DNA from: Clostridia bacterium
Lineage (GTDB): Bacteria; Bacillota; Clostridia; Christensenellales; CAG-138
Assembly (NCBI GenBank): GCA_036652795.1
Contig: JAVVVD010000004.1
Coordinates: forward strand, 46,842 to 110,841
Direction: 5' to 3'
DNA length: 64,000 nucleotides
The notes beneath the pieces are model-generated. The model was given only the letters and a program-made list of their open reading frames with translations. It made no database searches and was not told the DNA's origin. The position numbers and the translations under genes are program-made. Positions 20,852 to 47,373 of the stretch are shown one piece after another (the first letter of the stretch is position 1; each line of letters opens with the position of its first letter).

Positions 20852-21874
20852 TCATTTATGCACAGCCGACATATCCGATATTGTTATCCCTGTATAATAA
20901 TGTTCCAGTATATCCTCATATCCATCGCCCTCCTTCGCCATGGCGTTTGCGCCATATTGACTCAATCCCACGCCATGGCCAAAGCCTACGGTATTTACGT
21001 ATACGTGCTCATCCGTAAAGCGCAGCTTGAAATTGGCGCTGTCCAGTTCAAACAGCTTGCGCAACTCCCTTCCGCTGAGCGTTGCTCCACCTAACCTTAT
21101 ACGTTCTACCCTTCCGCTTTCAAAGCGGGCTTCTATCTTAATCTGTTTTTTTAACCCCTTTGCGGTAAGCTTTGCAGTGCGATATGTGGAATTGACTGTA
21201 GCGGCAAATGTTTTGCGTGAAAACCTTACCTCGGACTCATATCGCGTGGCGCTTTCCTCACCGGGGCTGGATACGCTCACAAGGTATGGCAGAGCGGCTG
21301 CAAACACATTGACTACATCCTCCGTATATCCACCTGAGCATGAATGATACAGCGCCTCTATCGGCATACCGTCATACAATGCCACCTTGCCGGCCGTTGC
21401 AAGCACTGCCCCACGCACACGGGAAAAATTGGTTTCATATGCTGTGCCCCAATTTTTCTTCAGCTGTTCCAAACTCCTGTAAGCCTGGCAGCAAGTGCTA
21501 TCCGTGCATACGTCCGCTTTACCGCACGGCGTTCCGCCGTATTGCGCCATACGGCGCACAGCAAATGTACGTGCCGCCACCGCCTGTGCCTTTAGTGCCT
21601 CGATTTCAAAGCTTACAGGCATCTCTGCGGCCACAACCTGCGCAATATACTCCTCCAGCTCCATATGCATCACCTTGCCCGTTTTACGATTTAAAACGGT
21701 AAGCTCCGCACACTGCGCTTCATCCGTGGTCGGCATTAGCTCTTCCCTTGGCGCACAGCTCATTGCGCAGCCGCGTATCATCAGCACAGCTACGCACAGG
21801 CATAGCGAGCATACAAGAACCGCTTTCCAGCTTATATTGATTTCCCTCAAACTAAAACGACGATAATAGCTCAT
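20852..21874 (-). CDS. spoIID: Stage II sporulation protein D (lytic transglycosylase)
   Basis: LKAQAVAARTFAVRR, CTDSTCCQAY, YHSCSGGYTE, YLVSVSSPGEE motifs. Start placed at MSYYRRF (21874). Confidence 0.88.
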   Translation of the reverse strand: MSYYRRFSLREINISWKAVLVCSLCLCVAVLMIRGCAMSCAPREELMPTTDEAQCAELTVLNRKTGKVMHMELEEYIAQVVAAEMPVSFEIEALKAQAVAARTFAVRRMAQYGGTPCGKADVCTDSTCCQAYRSLEQLKKNWGTAYETNFSRVRGAVLATAGKVALYDGMPIEALYHSCSGGYTEDVVNVFAAALPYLVSVSSPGEESATRYESEVRFSRKTFAATVNSTYRTAKLTAKGLKKQIKIEARFESGRVERIRLGGATLSGRELRKLFELDSANFKLRFTDEHVYVNTVGFGHGVGLSQYGANAMAKEGDGYEDILEHYYTGITISDMSAVHK

Positions 21875-25270: not shown

Positions 25271-25298
25271 ACGTGCCGCCATATTTTTACATATCTTA
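25271..25298 (+). promoter_or_regulatory. Possible sigma-K-type promoter (AC-N17-CATAnnnTA)
   Basis: AC at 25271-25272, a 17-nt spacer, then CATATCTTA at 25290-25298, about 50 nt upstream of the ATG at 25350. The motif carries little information. Confidence 0.3.
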
Positions 25299-25349
25299 TA
25301 CTGAGTATAAAATATAAAACTCGATAATAAAAAAAGGAGAATAGCTCTT

Positions 25350-25637
25350 ATGAGTATGCCCGTTATCACGCCCAGCACTGCAACCAGATGCCAGGCCATC
25401 ACGGATGTAATCGAATCCGTCGCCCTTGAGCAGACTGCTCTTTCCCACATACTTAATGCAGAGGGTGAGAAGCTGCAAGCCATGATCGGCATGGCTGCCA
25501 TTACCCCCGCCCAACTCTTGGCGACAAATAAATCCGTGCGTGCAATGGTAGATTCAATAGTCAGGCTGGAAATGATCTTCCAAACAAAGCTCGGCTTGTT
25601 TGAAGACTGCCTCTGCGTCGATTGCCACAAAACATAA
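25350..25637 (+). CDS. 95-aa protein made only of the conserved helical, Cys-terminated module shared with the 27158..28345 product
   Basis: AAGGAGA RBS. QAITDVIESVALEQTALSHILNAEGEKLQ is near-identical to QAINDLIESTALEQTALSHILNAEGEKLQ in the larger protein. No signal peptide. Ends CLCVDCHKT. Confidence 0.75.
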   Translation: MSMPVITPSTATRCQAITDVIESVALEQTALSHILNAEGEKLQAMIGMAAITPAQLLATNKSVRAMVDSIVRLEMIFQTKLGLFEDCLCVDCHKT

Positions 25638-25770
25638 GCATTTTAGCCCTTAGCAGCTCAGGTGGACATAACGCGCATATGTTATGTTCACTTTTGCTTG
25701 CTTTTCGTATCCATATGATATGCCTAATGTTTCAAAATGTGCAATTGCCCTATATTATGCTGGCTCAGTA

Positions 25771-26964
25771 TTATGTCAGATAGGTTTTCAAAAGCAGTGG
25801 CTTCAATTGATTTTTATATATCCATTCGTTTGAATATCTGGTTCTGGATAGCGTTTTTGACCAGATTACAGGATTATTCCGCATATTGCTAAGGATATTT
25901 TGAGCGTGATCTATATAATATACCCTTTCGGAGGGATGGTAGTTTTCGTAGGTGTCATAATCAAAGTTCCTGGCCGACCAGCGCATGAAATCCGCGTGTA
26001 TATTCGCGCCCAATTCCTCAAGCGCAGGGACCGCCTCATTTAGAATTATATAATTGCCTCTGCTGGCCGCTTCTATCACGGTTAAACCAAATGACTCCGA
26101 ATATGAAGGGCATATAAACAGATTGCTCAGCGAAAACAGATTGAATACCGTTTCTCTTTTTACACCATTTTTGAAGCCACACTCCGATGTGAATATTATA
26201 TCCTTGCTCTCAAGCCCGCTTTTGACGCCCACATCCTTTATTATTAATTTATACACGTCTGGACTGATATCCGCAGAAGGAAAATCGCACAATACAACGC
26301 CCACGCTTTTTGAACAGTATCTTTTAATGCAACCCGCAAATTCCGCAATCACATGAAATCTCTTTGCCATGTTCAGCCTTCCCGGGTAAACTATGATTAT
26401 CTCATTTTGAGTGAAATCAATATGTCTGCCTATCTCTACCGTTTCATCATCCATGCCCAGCATTATATCTACGCTGTTGTTTACGCATACACAATTTGAA
26501 ATATCCGTACCATATTGCTTCGCCAAGGCTCCAAGTCCACACTGGGTAGGGTAAACAAACATCGTATTTGGCATAGTTGAAAACATGCAGTTTATCGGAT
26601 ACGGCGCATCTATTCGCCTTGCGGGGGCAGAATGCGTAAATGATAAAAATTTTACGCTAGGTAACAGTGCCTGGGCTTTTCTTATCGCCACATTATGCAA
26701 TAGATGCACCCCCTGATACAGAATATCATGCATTATACATATATCCACATCCGCAAGATGCTTTACAAAATCTCTTGATATTATTTCGGCCTCATCAAAA
26801 AAGCCGCCGGCAATTTCATCATCGGCTTTTGTATAGGTTTTCCAGTTGAATCTATTTCCGTCTTTACTGTTTACTATTTTTATCCATTCTATTCGCTCGT
26901 CGGCAAATATCCCTGTTCTATCGCTATCAGGGCAGTGCTCGCTCACAAGCATTTTTACATGCAT
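25771..26964 (-). CDS. GT4-family (GT-B) glycosyltransferase
   Basis: EX7E motif in PSYSESFGLTVIEAAS and typical GT-B halves. Start placed at MHVKMLVSEH (26964, AAGGA RBS). The longer ORF-track start (27201) would overlap the divergent gene. Confidence 0.8.
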   Translation of the reverse strand: MHVKMLVSEHCPDSDRTGIFADERIEWIKIVNSKDGNRFNWKTYTKADDEIAGGFFDEAEIISRDFVKHLADVDICIMHDILYQGVHLLHNVAIRKAQALLPSVKFLSFTHSAPARRIDAPYPINCMFSTMPNTMFVYPTQCGLGALAKQYGTDISNCVCVNNSVDIMLGMDDETVEIGRHIDFTQNEIIIVYPGRLNMAKRFHVIAEFAGCIKRYCSKSVGVVLCDFPSADISPDVYKLIIKDVGVKSGLESKDIIFTSECGFKNGVKRETVFNLFSLSNLFICPSYSESFGLTVIEAASRGNYIILNEAVPALEELGANIHADFMRWSARNFDYDTYENYHPSERVYYIDHAQNILSNMRNNPVIWSKTLSRTRYSNEWIYKNQLKPLLLKTYLT

Positions 26965-27157
26965 GTTATCCTTAAGCAGCATTTCCAGTTGCTCTCTTAC
27001 AACGTTCACCAATGAATAGGTATTTGATAATCCGTTGAACATGGTTAAAATCGCAATTCTCAATGCAATTACTCCAATCACATCTAATATGAGCATATCA
27101 TAATATATACCGAGGTAATGCCATGCGTACCTCAATAAAATAATAGAAGGTAAATAT

Positions 27158-28345
27158 ATGGCTATAAATTTTTGGCTGGCAAACTCATTTAATATATTCA
27201 CTATAGCAAATCATACGCAAAGCAACGCAAACGCCACCGGTGCTGTATGGGTCGGTCAAACGGCAACCTATTTTAACTATAACGTCGGTTCCAGTCTTCC
27301 GTTTTCTACTAGCGCATATATGTTCGCTTTGCAGGTGCTAGGAAGCATGAATGTAAGCGGTGGCATAAACTACTCTCAAAACAGCGGAATTGATGCATTG
27401 GGCAGCGTAGCTCTGTACACGATGCATAACAATAATAACGTACCCAACCAGCCGCTTAGCTTTGTTTATAGACCCTTCGATGTTTATGCTTATAATTATT
27501 TATATCAATCCTCCGTAGGCTGGGCAAGTCTGCCGGCAAACGGCACAGTGTTGCATGCTGGCCCAGTATTAACCCTAACGGGAACGGATCCATCTTTAAA
27601 TATTTTTTTAATAAATACCGCATCGGTAAATATAAACGCTATCTCAACTATCAACCTGGTTGTTCCGGTCAATTCCACTGTTCTTATCAGCATTACCGGC
27701 AATACCGTAGCCCTTACCAGCCTTACAACACAGTTCAACGGCACACCTATATCCCAAGCGCAGGCTGCATATGTGTTATGGAATTTCCCCGATGCCATCA
27801 CGCTTAACCTACATTCGAATATATATGGTTCGTTGCTTGCGCCCTTCGCATCTGTTGCCACAAGTGCCGGAACCATATATGGAACGCTGATGTCATACAA
27901 CCTTACCGGCCAAATAAACGCCGTGAAAAACGACTTTATGGGCACGCTCCCGGATCTTTATGATCCGTCCACCACAAATACAACTTGCAGTTTTACTACC
28001 TCAACTACCACCACCACCACCACCACGACTACAACAACCACCACTACAACCACCCATACGCACACGCACACCACTATGTCCACTACAACCGTGGCACCGC
28101 CTCCGCGGGCACAGGCGATCAATGATTTAATTGAATCCACTGCGCTTGAACAAACTGCGCTATCCCATATTTTAAATGCGGAGGGAGAGAAGCTGCAAAA
28201 AGCGCTTAAAATGGACATGAGCGCAGAGCAGCTTACTGCAATGAATAAATCTGTGATGCGTATGGCGAATGCCGTAGGTAAGTTGGAGATACTGTTGCAG
28301 GAAAAATTGGAAACGCTTGGTTGTGACAACCTATGCAATAAATGA
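27158..28345 (+). CDS. Leaderless three-part protein: choice-of-anchor-A-like beta-rich domain, poly-Thr/His-Thr stalk, and conserved C-terminal helical module
   Basis: N-terminus LANSFNIFTIANHTQSNANATGAVWVGQTA resembles the choice-of-anchor A signature (adFNvfv..d...snsd.eGrvavGg). T-run plus HTHTHT. The C-terminal roughly 75 aa are paralogous to the 25350..25637 product. Confidence 0.75.
   Translation: MAINFWLANSFNIFTIANHTQSNANATGAVWVGQTATYFNYNVGSSLPFSTSAYMFALQVLGSMNVSGGINYSQNSGIDALGSVALYTMHNNNNVPNQPLSFVYRPFDVYAYNYLYQSSVGWASLPANGTVLHAGPVLTLTGTDPSLNIFLINTASVNINAISTINLVVPVNSTVLISITGNTVALTSLTTQFNGTPISQAQAAYVLWNFPDAITLNLHSNIYGSLLAPFASVATSAGTIYGTLMSYNLTGQINAVKNDFMGTLPDLYDPSTTNTTCSFTTSTTTTTTTTTTTTTTTTTHTHTHTTMSTTTVAPPPRAQAINDLIESTALEQTALSHILNAEGEKLQKALKMDMSAEQLTAMNKSVMRMANAVGKLEILLQEKLETLGCDNLCNK
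27995..28090 (+). repeat. ACC/ACA/ACG-rich low-complexity tract encoding a poly-Thr run then HTHTHT
   Basis: Read directly: actacctcaactaccaccaccaccaccaccacgactacaacaaccaccactacaaccacccatacgcacacgcacacc. Confidence 0.9.
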
Positions 28346-45698: not shown

Positions 45699-45733
45699 AA
45701 CAATGGAATTTTCTAATTCATATAGTAGCACAC

Positions 45734-46013: not shown

Positions 46014-46042
46014 TTGACAATTCTTACTGATTGAATTATAAT
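46014..46042 (+). promoter_or_regulatory. Consensus sigma-A promoter for the triple-RidA gene
   Basis: TTGACA (46014-46019), 17 nt, TATAAT (46037-46042). Confidence 0.7.
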
Positions 46043-46104
46043 TGCTCCGCAAGAGTATATATCAAAAATCCACAATAACATTTATTTTAAAGGGGAATAC
46101 TATC

Positions 46105-47373
46105 ATGAGCGCCAACAACGCAGTACTACCAAGAAATACGGAAAATGCACCAATAAATCCTATGTTTTCACAAACTGTAGCCTTCTCTCACTACAATAAT
46201 CTTTCAGCCCAATTGCCTATTGTTCCCAAAACCGGCAAATTGGTAGCTGGTGGTGTAAAGGAGCAGGCTGAACAGTGCTTTAAAAATATCAAGGCAATTG
46301 TAGAGAGCATCGAGCATGTCATGAGCGATATTGTTAGAATCACTGTATTCGTTAAAAATATCAAAGATGTTGACGCTATAGATGAAGTTTACAAAACATT
46401 CTTTACAACCTATGTTCCTTCACGCACGATAGTCGCAGTTGCGGCTTTGCCGATGAATGCTTTGGTGCAAATTGAGGCACTTGTTTTAAACGGCGAGGGT
46501 ACAATTCCAAACGCGCCACAAGCAGGGGATCTGATAAAGCTTACAAACAACACGGCAAATGCGCCAACAAATCCTCTTTCTACACAGAGTGTAGCTTTTT
46601 CCCATTACAATAATCTTTCAGCGCAATTACCTATCGATCCTAAAACCGGCAGGGTGATAGCCGGTGGCGTAAAAGAGCAGACCATACAGTGCTTAAAGAA
46701 TATCAAAGCAATTTTAGAAAGTATCGACGTCCCTTTTGACGATATTGTTAAAACCACTATATTCCTCAAGGACCTCGCGGATATTGATGCAGTGAATGAA
46801 GTTTACACAACGTTTTTCCCAGACTCGGCTATCGCCAGAGCCGTAGCCTATGTCCCTGCACGGACAATAGTTGCAGCTTCAGCCTTGCCTATGGGCGCTT
46901 TAGTGCAAATTGAAGCCGTGGCATCTCACGGAGATGGCACCCCGCCTCAGGCTGTTGAAGACAGGCATGGGCTAATCATAGAGGCAAGCAATACGGCAAA
47001 TGCGCCAATCAGCCCTCTGTCTACCCAAACCGTAGCTTTTTCTCATTACAATAATCTTTCCGCCCAATTACCTTTAGACCCCAAAACTGGTAAAATGGTG
47101 GCTGGTTGTGTAAAGGAGCAGACCAAGCAGTGCTTGAAAAATATCAAGGCAATTATAGAAAGTGTCGACCATGTTATGGATGATGTTGTTAAAATCAATA
47201 TCTTCCTTAAAAATATCGCGGATATCGATGCTGTTAACGAGGTTTATGCAACATTCTTCCCAGGCGGTGTTCCTGCATGCAGAGTAGTTGGCGTAGCAGC
47301 ATTGCCTAATGATGCTCTGGTTCAAATTGACGCAATTGTTGCAAACGCTGAAGGAACACCTCCGCGGGCATAG
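46105..47373 (+). CDS. Single polypeptide with three tandem RidA/YjgF/RutC-family domains
   Basis: Three units of about 140 aa each begin NAP(I/T)(N/S)P..SQ.VAFSHYNNLSAQLP..PKTG and end ALP..ALVQI(E/D)A. Start at MSANNAV, with a GGGG RBS upstream. Confidence 0.85.
   Translation: MSANNAVLPRNTENAPINPMFSQTVAFSHYNNLSAQLPIVPKTGKLVAGGVKEQAEQCFKNIKAIVESIEHVMSDIVRITVFVKNIKDVDAIDEVYKTFFTTYVPSRTIVAVAALPMNALVQIEALVLNGEGTIPNAPQAGDLIKLTNNTANAPTNPLSTQSVAFSHYNNLSAQLPIDPKTGRVIAGGVKEQTIQCLKNIKAILESIDVPFDDIVKTTIFLKDLADIDAVNEVYTTFFPDSAIARAVAYVPARTIVAASALPMGALVQIEAVASHGDGTPPQAVEDRHGLIIEASNTANAPISPLSTQTVAFSHYNNLSAQLPLDPKTGKMVAGCVKEQTKQCLKNIKAIIESVDHVMDDVVKINIFLKNIADIDAVNEVYATFFPGGVPACRVVGVAALPNDALVQIDAIVANAEGTPPRA

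Follow-up and report, generated by a model that had tools for sequence, protein, structure and literature searches.

What do two leaderless, paralogous proteins and the glycosyltransferase encoded between them build in a clostridial genome? The question is raised by a locus in a 64,000-nucleotide stretch of a Clostridia bacterium genome (GenBank assembly GCA_036652795.1, contig JAVVVD010000004.1, positions 46,842 to 110,841), hereafter the window, which was analysed at its full length. A small gene on the plus strand (25350..25637, 95 aa) and a larger one on the same strand (27158..28345, 395 aa) flank a family 4 glycosyltransferase (GT4) gene on the minus strand (maximal open reading frame (ORF) 25771..27201, 476 aa), which is convergent with the small gene and divergent from the larger one. 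An earlier note, made from the DNA alone, had read these genes as a glycosylated spore-surface module; the three ORFs are all present where it had placed them. We find that the module common to the two flanking proteins is the A-ENA domain of endospore appendage fibres. The reading that we favour, with a probability of about 0.6, makes the 95-aa protein the major subunit of a spore fibre and the 395-aa fusion protein a minor one, crosslinked into it and displaying an O-glycosylated adhesin.

The shared module is an A-ENA domain

In phmmer searches, residues 1-82 of the 95-aa protein (E = 6.7e-14) and residues 317-386 of the 395-aa protein (E = 8e-9) matched 9ihh_A. The entry 9ihh, titled 'Ex vivo spore-silk A-ENA fibers', is the single PDB entry matched by both proteins. 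The precomputed Pfam annotation assigns PF26595 (A_ENA) to the 95-aa protein, and PF26595 together with PF20597 to homologs of the fusion, with no entry on the 395-aa product of the window itself. Local Pfam and NCBIfam scans of the 95-aa protein gave no match, PF26595 not being reported by the local Pfam copy. A BLASTP comparison of the two proteins identified the C-terminus of the larger one as a paralog of the 95-aa protein (E = 2e-22, 59% identity over 69 aa). The two sequences are almost the same in the first helix, with 27/31 matching positions by eye and ALEQTALSHILNAEGEKLQ identical, and the figure of about 80% core identity given in the earlier note holds for this helix only, the module overall standing at 59% over 69 aa.

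According to the paper on the founding member (PMC13111695; Sleutel, Sogues & Remaut, Nat Commun 2026), A-ENA of Bacillus thuringiensis israelensis (Bt) is a 101-aa leaderless helical hairpin. The Bt hairpins stack into a two-start cross-alpha fibre, held together covalently by autocatalytic intermolecular isopeptide bonds of five kinds; in one kind, the donor is the free amine at the start of an 'N-terminal lock'. The 95-aa protein aligns to 9ihh_A from residue 1, lock MxMP included, and the alignment delimits an N-terminal lock (aa 1-13), a helical hairpin (about aa 14-82) and a Cys tail, CLCVDC (aa 87-92). The shared module, which the earlier note could not assign to a named family, is in fact PF26595, an endospore-appendage domain with a solved structure, which supports the earlier idea of a spore-appendage module. 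The small paralog had been taken for a basal or adaptor subunit; its full-length homology to Bt A-ENA, including the lock and Ser2, indicates that it is more likely the major subunit.

Searches among 1.84 billion representatives placed 1,534 clusters at 50% identity in the A-ENA family (E <= 1e-3), with fusions common at both the N-terminal and the C-terminal position. A phage tail-fibre reading was also considered and rejected: no PHROGs family matched the A-ENA module, and the stalk of the fusion protein gave only a marginal low-complexity match.

The fusion protein carries a choice-of-anchor-A head and a Thr-rich stalk

Residues 7-260 of the 395-aa protein matched both TIGR04215 (choice-of-anchor A; 5e-37, 128 bits against a cut-off of 29) and PF20597 (pAdhesive_15; E = 3e-33, 116 bits against 23.8), in agreement with the assignment that the earlier note had made for the N-terminal 270 aa or so. 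An AlphaFold2 (AF2) model built from 26 homologs, with a mean predicted local distance difference test score (pLDDT) of 83, gave a confident beta-solenoid with a flanking helix over residues 1-265 (pLDDT above 90), disorder over residues 269-312 (pLDDT below 50) and a helical hairpin at residues 316-351 and 356-386. Foldseek searches with this model revealed that the head folds like DUF3494 ice-binding proteins (9lhr, 7bwx, 5b5h, 6bg8; E = 4e-5 to 1e-3), and that the tail superposes on 9ihh_A with a root-mean-square deviation of 2.4 Å, 42% identity and TM(target) of 0.69. The gene is divided, all on the plus strand, into a head (aa 1-265, 27158..27952), a disordered Thr-rich stalk that is a putative O-glycosylation substrate (aa 266-316, 27953..28105), and the C-terminal A-ENA domain (aa 317-395) with its Cys tail GCDNLC and the stop codon (28106..28345). 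The stalk contains the poly-Thr run (T17) and the HTHTHT noticed earlier, followed further on by VAPPP.

The choice-of-anchor-A domain begins at residue 2, with no signal peptide, as the earlier note had said. No transmembrane segment or sorting motif (LPXTG, PEP-CTERM or T9SS) was found in the C-terminus, where the A-ENA domain lies instead. All homologs, more than 100 in number, start with MAINF or hold MAINF after an evidently over-extended start, and the leaderless state is thus conserved. A Ser/Thr (S/T)-rich linker is present in nearly all fusion homologs examined, mostly of 30-101 aa and mostly with 60-89% S/T. Its length differs between near-identical strains, with T17+(HT)3 in the window, T15+(HT)4 in the related locus L001 and T15+(HT)3 in L002; slipped-strand variation in ACC/ACG-CAC repeats could account for these differences (window 27990-28090; L001/L002 12600-12780). 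Pfam and NCBIfam scans of the fusion gave no match to a collagen or C1q domain, and a BclA-type assignment was rejected on the absence of collagen repeats and of a C1q match.

Three of the five isopeptide triads of Bt A-ENA are conserved

Bt A-ENA and A-ENA1 (from pBtoxis) were aligned with 111 small and 108 fusion homologs, and the residues of the five isopeptide bonds (IPB1 to IPB5; Bt numbering, donor to acceptor, then catalyst) were compared. IPB1 (G2 N-terminal amine to Q44; E41) is conserved in the homologs. At residue 2, 109/111 small subunits have G or S, which makes a free N-terminal amine after Met removal plausible. The donor and acceptor of IPB2 (K42 to N64; E39) are invariant, and E39 is kept in 108/108 fusions and in 110/111 small subunits, the remaining one having D. 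IPB3 (K84 to E29; E28) is conserved with E29 changed to Q, and E28 is changed to Q in most fusions. The donors of the other two bonds are lost: in IPB4 (K77 to E78; E28) the donor is replaced by L in 110/111 small subunits and 106/108 fusions, and in IPB5 (K76 to Q82; E86) by R in 95/111 small subunits and mostly by N in fusions. In the 95-aa protein of the window, K77 is L and K76 is R, and the IPB5 catalyst E86 is G.

For this protein the predicted bonds are those from the Ser2 N-terminal amine to Q43, from K41 to N60 and from K80 to Q28, with E40, E38 and E27 as the predicted catalysts. The C-terminal domain of the fusion keeps the IPB2 and IPB3 triads and the IPB1 acceptor. Because the stalk occupies the position of the lock's free amine, the fusion could accept but not donate IPB1.

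After helix 2, 106/112 small and about 91/107 fusion homologs (among P0001-P0240) have a Cys motif, F(E/D)DC(L/I)C(xxC); the window copies lie at 25596-25634 (CLCVDC) and 28316-28342 (GCDNLC). Of the two Bt proteins, A-ENA has no such motif and A-ENA1 has LCSC. In clostridial A-ENA domains the presence of the motif goes together with the loss of the K76 and K77 donors, and it marks a subfamily-level variant. Speculatively, CxC(xxC) may replace the two missing bonds by disulfides or metal bridges, and it might explain the '4Fe-4S' passenger class of the A-ENA paper.

The GT4 gene accompanies Ser/Thr stalks

The GT4 gene most likely starts at the TTG at 27063 (25771..27063, minus strand), giving a 430-aa product that begins (M)RIAILT, with GGAG 8 nt upstream. 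The same start was chosen by gene callers on the source contigs, and an equivalent start is present in four orthologs. The product matched Pfam Glycos_transf_1 (34 bits against a threshold of 26.4), and the EX7E motif reported earlier is present as ESFGLTVIE. Its AF2 model (pLDDT 93) has a GT-B fold of the retaining type, with MshA, BshA and GlgM as the top Foldseek matches (E = 4e-15); the sequence search against the PDB returned only a weak MshA match. From its gene context, the enzyme is a putative O-glycosyltransferase for the Thr stalk.

Every fully covered locus that was inspected has a GT4 ortholog (about 428 aa, 50-77% identical) beside the fusion gene. The ortholog is either divergent from the fusion gene, the arrangement seen in the window, or comes right after it in an array of small, fusion and GT genes. 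To quantify this co-occurrence, which the earlier note had anticipated, 85 non-redundant loci were scored with home-made hidden Markov models for GT4 and for S/T-stalk A-ENA proteins. Both were found in 28 loci and neither in 52, leaving 5 discordant loci, 3 with GT4 only and 2 with a stalk only (Fisher p = 8e-17, uncorrected for phylogeny). In the 28 loci, GT4 adjoins the stalk-bearing fusion or is at most a few kb away from it. The discordant loci likely have technical explanations. GT4 is present in L032, where the stalk is interrupted by in-frame stop codons; in L064, where the stalks score just under the threshold; and in L047, where the contig covers about 500 nt beyond GT4 and a stalk-bearing fusion gene could lie off it. 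In L014 and L015, GT4 was not found, and the fusion genes lie near contig ends with the downstream position uncovered. Four choice-of-anchor-A/A-ENA fusions whose linker is short and not of the S/T type (L018, L021, L022, L024) have no GT4 within 10 kb.

The GT4 subfamily has a mean column identity of 68% across Bacilli, Clostridia and Halanaerobiales, and occurs mostly in spore formers. Four of six distant orthologs lie in A-ENA clusters (from Bacillaceae, Halanaerobiales and a metagenome-assembled genome (MAG) of 34% GC) that include an A-ENA protein of opposite topology, in which an N-terminal A-ENA domain precedes a stalk of (TTSS)n, (TTTTE)n or (ESTTTTT)n and then a passenger or none. A Virgibacillus ortholog has as neighbours CotZ, a collagen-like protein and a protein outside the A-ENA family whose S/T stalk is 75 aa long. 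Strict specificity of the GT4 for A-ENA was rejected, the Virgibacillus locus and one in Orenia having no A-ENA near GT4. Because the distant orthologs and the stalkless fusions behave in this way, we conclude that the GT4 follows the S/T stalks of spore-surface proteins and not A-ENA or choice-of-anchor-A domains. This covariation is the strongest available support for the putative decoration of the stalk by the GT4, a role suggested from the start. Homology and comparative genomics support well the core idea of the earlier note, a leaderless, glycosylated spore-appendage module with its own GT. The enzyme could be the initiator or the extender of the stalk glycan.

Two further arrangements were observed around GT4 orthologs. 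In two Bacillaceae A-ENA loci (L088 4351-5538, L090 4595-5806), a GT2+TPR gene stands beside GT4, together with sugar epimerases/dehydratases and DUF7164, which by analogy suggests multi-step glycans on A-ENA stalks; no GT2+TPR gene was found in the 64-kb window. In Virgibacillus byunsanensis (L092 489-1583 and 7321-8010), the S/T-stalk and collagen-like proteins share a Cys-rich C-terminal domain (CC..V.....Q.VPP...G), and the pair adjoins CotZ, the GT4 ortholog, GT2, APS kinase and sulfotransferase. This domain may be another spore-surface anchoring module served by the same GT4, possibly with sulfated glycans.

Promoter motifs and distribution suggest a link to sporulation

The sigma-K-like motif already recognised before the small gene is AC-N17-CATATCTTA (25271..25298, plus strand; AC at 25271-72, -10 element at 25290-98). 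It ends 51 nt before the ATG, and a ribosome-binding site, AAAGGAG, lies between at 25333..25339 on the plus strand. A pattern search located a second such motif, AC-N17-CATAATATA (27080..27107, plus strand; CATAATATA at 27099-27107), ending 50 nt before the ATG of the fusion gene. An alternative -10 element for this gene, CATATCATA (27094-27102), was rejected for having no AC at the right spacing. The published SigK site of Bt a-ena is AC-N17-CATATAATA, 46 bp upstream, and an a-ena reporter and the tagged protein are confined to sporulating cells and spores (PMC13111695).

The pattern AC-N17-CATANNNTA has 7 matches on both strands of the 64-kb window, against 2.3 expected. Among homologs, 25/70 small genes and 13/25 fusion genes have AC-N16/17-CATANNNTA in the 150 nt that precede them, in most cases 43-54 nt from the start codon (45-54 nt for fusion genes), against 11/778 control ORFs, a contrast that is somewhat inflated because the control set includes non-genic ORFs. 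The motif type is thus enriched upstream of homologs of both A-ENA genes. Spore genes (SipL, DUF1657, CotZ and spore permease) occur in related loci, and the SpoIID gene cited in the earlier note as a sign of a spore former was identified by Pfam at window 20852..21850.

A sequence element, ctGCGAGCgaaaGCTtAAT, was observed directly after the -10 box, about 45 nt upstream of small genes, in L019, L020, L025, L031, L032, L037, L046, L047 and L062. It is a short GAGC/GCTC hairpin with a variable loop, located at the predicted mRNA 5' end, and could be a stabiliser of the 5' untranslated region; a clear copy is not evident in the window. Elsewhere in the window, AC-N17-CATATAGTA at 45700-45727 lies about 315 nt upstream of a 443-aa protein (46042-47373) made of three repeated modules of about 130-140 aa, with a tRNA-like sequence between.

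The architecture combining PF20597 and PF26595 comprises at least 189 clusters at 90% identity, labelled Oscillospiraceae, Lachnospiraceae, Erysipelotrichaceae, Anaerovoracaceae, 'Bacilli' MAGs and Butyricicoccus pullicaecorum; a genome scan added Flavonifractor and Lawsonibacter as carriers. The closest relatives of the locus proteins are labelled Ruthenibacterium or Oscillospiraceae. Named carriers belong almost all to endospore-forming lineages, in line with the restriction to spore formers that a spore-surface role had led the earlier note to expect. Labels of 'Muribaculaceae' (L021, L022, L076) and 'Ignavibacteriales' (L091) sit on contigs of 23-34% GC (25-27% in L021 and L022, 34% in L091) and, because of this low GC, are probably binning or labelling errors. 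One A-ENA locus (L086) was seen on a contig labelled 'Faecalibacterium', probably an error of the same kind.

The genomic context of the A-ENA module varies from genome to genome. About half of the fusion loci also have a small A-ENA gene, either adjacent to the fusion gene or at most a few kb away; in several, the small gene immediately precedes the fusion gene and seems to form an operon with it and the GT gene. C-terminal A-ENA domains behind large passengers (SdrD_B, DUF11 and unknown folds; up to 1,859 aa) are frequent in Clostridia. SdrD_B/DUF11-repeat giants ending in A-ENA were found at L085 4664-10243 (1859 aa) and L033 8219-10321 (700 aa); their passenger types are the same as in the B. 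cereus group, but N-terminal to A-ENA. An uncharacterised passenger class was also observed, in a protein of some 330-370 aa that ends in an A-ENA domain and whose N-terminal part has no Pfam match. It recurs in Clostridia and Erysipelotrichales next to a gene for an A-ENA protein of about 95 aa (L008 11340-12380, L009 11191-12261, L033, L036, L041-L043, L048, L050, L060, L076 and L083).

Surroundings of the locus

GC content is 0.37-0.44 over about 25.0-28.0 kb of the window and 0.47-0.56 in the flanks; the lower-GC pocket described earlier is therefore real, though modest. In the annotation of the window, no integrase or phage genes adjoin the locus. About 6.5 kb downstream, from about 34.8 kb of the window onward (L001 19459-20288), there is a gene for a type IV pilin-like protein (N_methyl + PilJ_C), and SigI/RsgI-like genes (RsgI_M, sigma-70, RsgI_M) follow the module, the same RsgI/sigma trio being found after the fusion gene in L007.

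A proposed spore fibre and its alternatives

In the reading that we favour, both A-ENA genes would be transcribed late in the mother cell from sigma-K-type promoters, a timing suggested by the promoter motifs, and the leaderless proteins would reach the spore surroundings at mother-cell lysis. The 95-aa hairpins would stack into a cross-alpha fibre locked by three of the five Bt-type bonds. The 395-aa protein would enter the same fibre through its C-terminal A-ENA domain, donating and accepting K-to-N and K-to-Q bonds; it could not donate the lock bond, and its place would therefore be that of a minor subunit, either decorating the fibre or at its end. The GT4 would act earlier, in the cytoplasm, and O-glycosylate the Thr stalk before the protein assembles, as its covariation with stalks suggests, to give a stiff, protease-resistant, mucin-like spacer that holds out the beta-solenoid head. 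The head may serve as a lectin or adhesin in spore-spore, spore-matrix or spore-host binding, by analogy with other choice-of-anchor-A domains, namely the cellulose-binding Jonah lectins of Acanthamoeba cyst walls and the Trailins, adhesive-trail proteins of diatoms.

Several observations weigh against this reading. Two of the five Bt isopeptide bonds cannot form, including IPB5, the only inter-protofilament bond in Bt, and the quaternary structure may for this reason differ from that in 9ihh. The nearest solved relatives of the GT4 (MshA, BshA and GlgM) act on small molecules and not on proteins, and neither a stalk protein nor an A-ENA gene lies within 6 kb of the Orenia ortholog (L093). The loci in the GT4-stalk comparison are not phylogenetically independent. 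The promoter motif is of low information content; it was found at 1/30 GT4 genes, and the GT4 gene of the window is divergently transcribed. Some carriers, such as Butyricicoccus pullicaecorum and the 'Faecalibacterium' MAG, are not known to sporulate in culture.

The place of the fusion in the fibre admits other arrangements. It could be a basal anchor or nucleator, with the head bound to coat, exosporium or a surface polysaccharide and the A-ENA domain seeding or tethering the 95-aa fibre. F-ENA and S-ENA fibres do possess dedicated anchoring subunits (PMC12357932), choice-of-anchor-A domains bind polysaccharides in other systems, and a protein unable to donate the lock bond is a natural fit at one fibre end. 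We nevertheless consider a basal position unlikely: Bt A-ENA forms an unanchored matrix and not anchored pili (PMC13111695), and a long, putatively glycosylated spacer whose length varies is what one would expect of an adhesin exposed at the distal end more than of an anchor that is buried. Less likely again is an absence of co-assembly, with the fusion forming a homopolymeric 'bottle-brush' fibre or a small oligomer and the 95-aa protein a separate plain fibre. The proximity of small and fusion genes in about half of the fusion loci, with several apparent operons, argues for a common structure, as do interface and isopeptide residues that are alike in both families; by the Bt helical parameters, a 265-aa head at every 5.4-Å rise also looks sterically implausible. 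Separate assembly is favoured by Bt A-ENA and A-ENA1, which form fibres singly and are expressed independently (PMC13111695), by the separate promoter motifs of the two A-ENA genes in the window, and by L007, L010-L013 and L017, which have the fusion and GT4 with no small subunit in the sequence covered.

The GT4, for its part, might make or extend a spore-surface polysaccharide, or extend the glycan of another enzyme, and only be co-located with spore-surface genes. The small-molecule substrates of its solved relatives would suit such a role, and the Orenia locus has sugar-nucleotide genes without a stalk protein; in the Bacillaceae loci, moreover, an SgtA-like GT2+TPR, of the known Thr O-GlcNAc initiator type, adjoins GT4 and suggests that the latter is an extender. 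We give this only a slim chance, since GT4 is the only GT seen in gut-Clostridia loci with annotated neighbours, tracks the stalk and not the A-ENA or choice-of-anchor-A domains, and has no GT2+TPR partner in the 64-kb window; an extender role would in any case still imply a glycosylated stalk. That the locus has nothing to do with spores, being a vegetative or biofilm-matrix structure released by lysis or part of a mobile or phage element, appears highly improbable. GC below that of the flanks, the varied genomic contexts of the module and carrier taxa not known to sporulate would fit such an origin, yet the A-ENA module has no PHROG match, no integrase or phage genes adjoin the locus, the founding member Bt A-ENA is spore-specific, the sigma-K-type motif is enriched, and the carriers come almost all from endospore-forming lineages.

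Beyond the minor fusion subunit of a spore fibre proposed here, a wider reading can be put forward tentatively, at somewhat less than an even chance. A-ENA would then be a fourth 'choice of anchor', independent of secretion and sortase and self-crosslinking, by which mucin-like, O-glycosylated stalks with interchangeable adhesin heads (choice-of-anchor A, SdrD_B/DUF11 and several unknown folds) are grafted covalently onto spore fibres, with one highly conserved GT4 subfamily serving the stalks of spore-surface proteins phylum-wide, in Clostridia, Erysipelotrichales, Bacillaceae and Halanaerobiales. If this holds, such fibres could be a main determinant of the sticking of spores to spores, mucus and dietary fibre, and so of host-to-host transmission in gut anaerobes.

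Significance and comparison with known systems

The A-ENA domain family and its chemistry are already known (2026) and curated in Pfam. Four features are absent from the literature in its accessible part: a choice-of-anchor-A passenger on A-ENA; the inverted topology, in which a C-terminal A-ENA domain serves as the 'anchor' of a choice-of-anchor protein; the phylum-wide partnership of S/T stalk and dedicated GT4; and the absence of two isopeptide bonds, accompanied by an added Cys motif. Characterisation of A-ENA fibres has to date been limited to one insect pathogen, whose spores they glue to toxin crystals. The present locus and its roughly 190 relatives place A-ENA chemistry in common gut Clostridia and Erysipelotrichales, with a lectin-like head and a probably glycosylated stalk. 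If the favoured reading is correct, they provide a molecular candidate, open to test, for how spores of the gut microbiota adhere and are transmitted, identify a conserved spore-surface glycosyltransferase subfamily with its likely substrate class, and offer a natural modular scaffold of fibre subunit, passenger and glyco-spacer for display on ultra-stable protein fibres.

Like Bt A-ENA and A-ENA1 (Q8KNV8, 9ihh), the small protein is a leaderless, predicted helical hairpin of about 95-100 aa with an N-terminal lock, and the donor, acceptor and catalyst residues of IPB1-3 are present. The two loci also share a layout, with two paralogous genes separated by an oppositely oriented enzyme gene, an AC-N17-CATANNNTA promoter motif about 46-51 nt upstream, and single-domain subunits accompanied by fusion ('ruffle') subunits. 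They differ in that IPB4 and IPB5 (K77, K76, E86) are lost here and a C-terminal CxC(xxC) is conserved, and in that the intervening gene encodes a GT4, whereas in Bt it encodes an amidase. The present locus is chromosomal, in an anaerobic gut Oscillospiraceae bacterium, with no toxin genes nearby. Its A-ENA domain is C-terminal, behind an N-terminal passenger, unlike the fusions described in the text of the Bt paper, in which an N-terminal A-ENA domain precedes collagen/C1q, SdrD_B/OmcB or 4Fe-4S passengers; choice-of-anchor A, glycosylation and S/T stalks are not mentioned in the main text of PMC13111695.

The pairing of a GT gene with a leaderless, Thr-rich, putative spore-surface protein resembles SgtA-BclA3 of Clostridioides difficile, in which SgtA, a GT-A + TPR enzyme, adds O-GlcNAc to Thr of BclA3 (PMC7157674); in both systems the mother cell would be the site of modification. 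This analogy, drawn in the earlier note, stands at the level of function; in structure the systems diverge, the inverting GT-A fold with TPR of SgtA contrasting with the predicted retaining GT-B/GT4 enzyme of the locus, and the fusion having no collagen repeat. In the glycosylated tip fibrils of BclA and F-BclA, collagen GXX repeats carry a C1q-like head, whereas the fusion has a homopolymeric Thr stalk, a choice-of-anchor-A head and another anchoring module.

A cytoplasmic GT4 that glycosylates a long S/T-rich stalk bearing an adhesin domain is familiar from the serine-rich repeat adhesins with GtfA/GtfB. These adhesins carry a signal peptide, are exported by the accessory Sec system and are anchored through LPXTG; the locus has none of the three. 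A further parallel is offered by the choice-of-anchor A proteins (TIGR04215 / PF20597), in which an N-terminal ice-binding-like beta-solenoid head likewise precedes a C-terminal anchoring module. That family takes its name from the alternative sorting signals (LPXTG, PEP-CTERM, T9SS) that its members have at the C-terminus, along with a signal peptide at the N-terminus; the protein described here is leaderless, and its 'anchor' is the putatively self-polymerising A-ENA domain.

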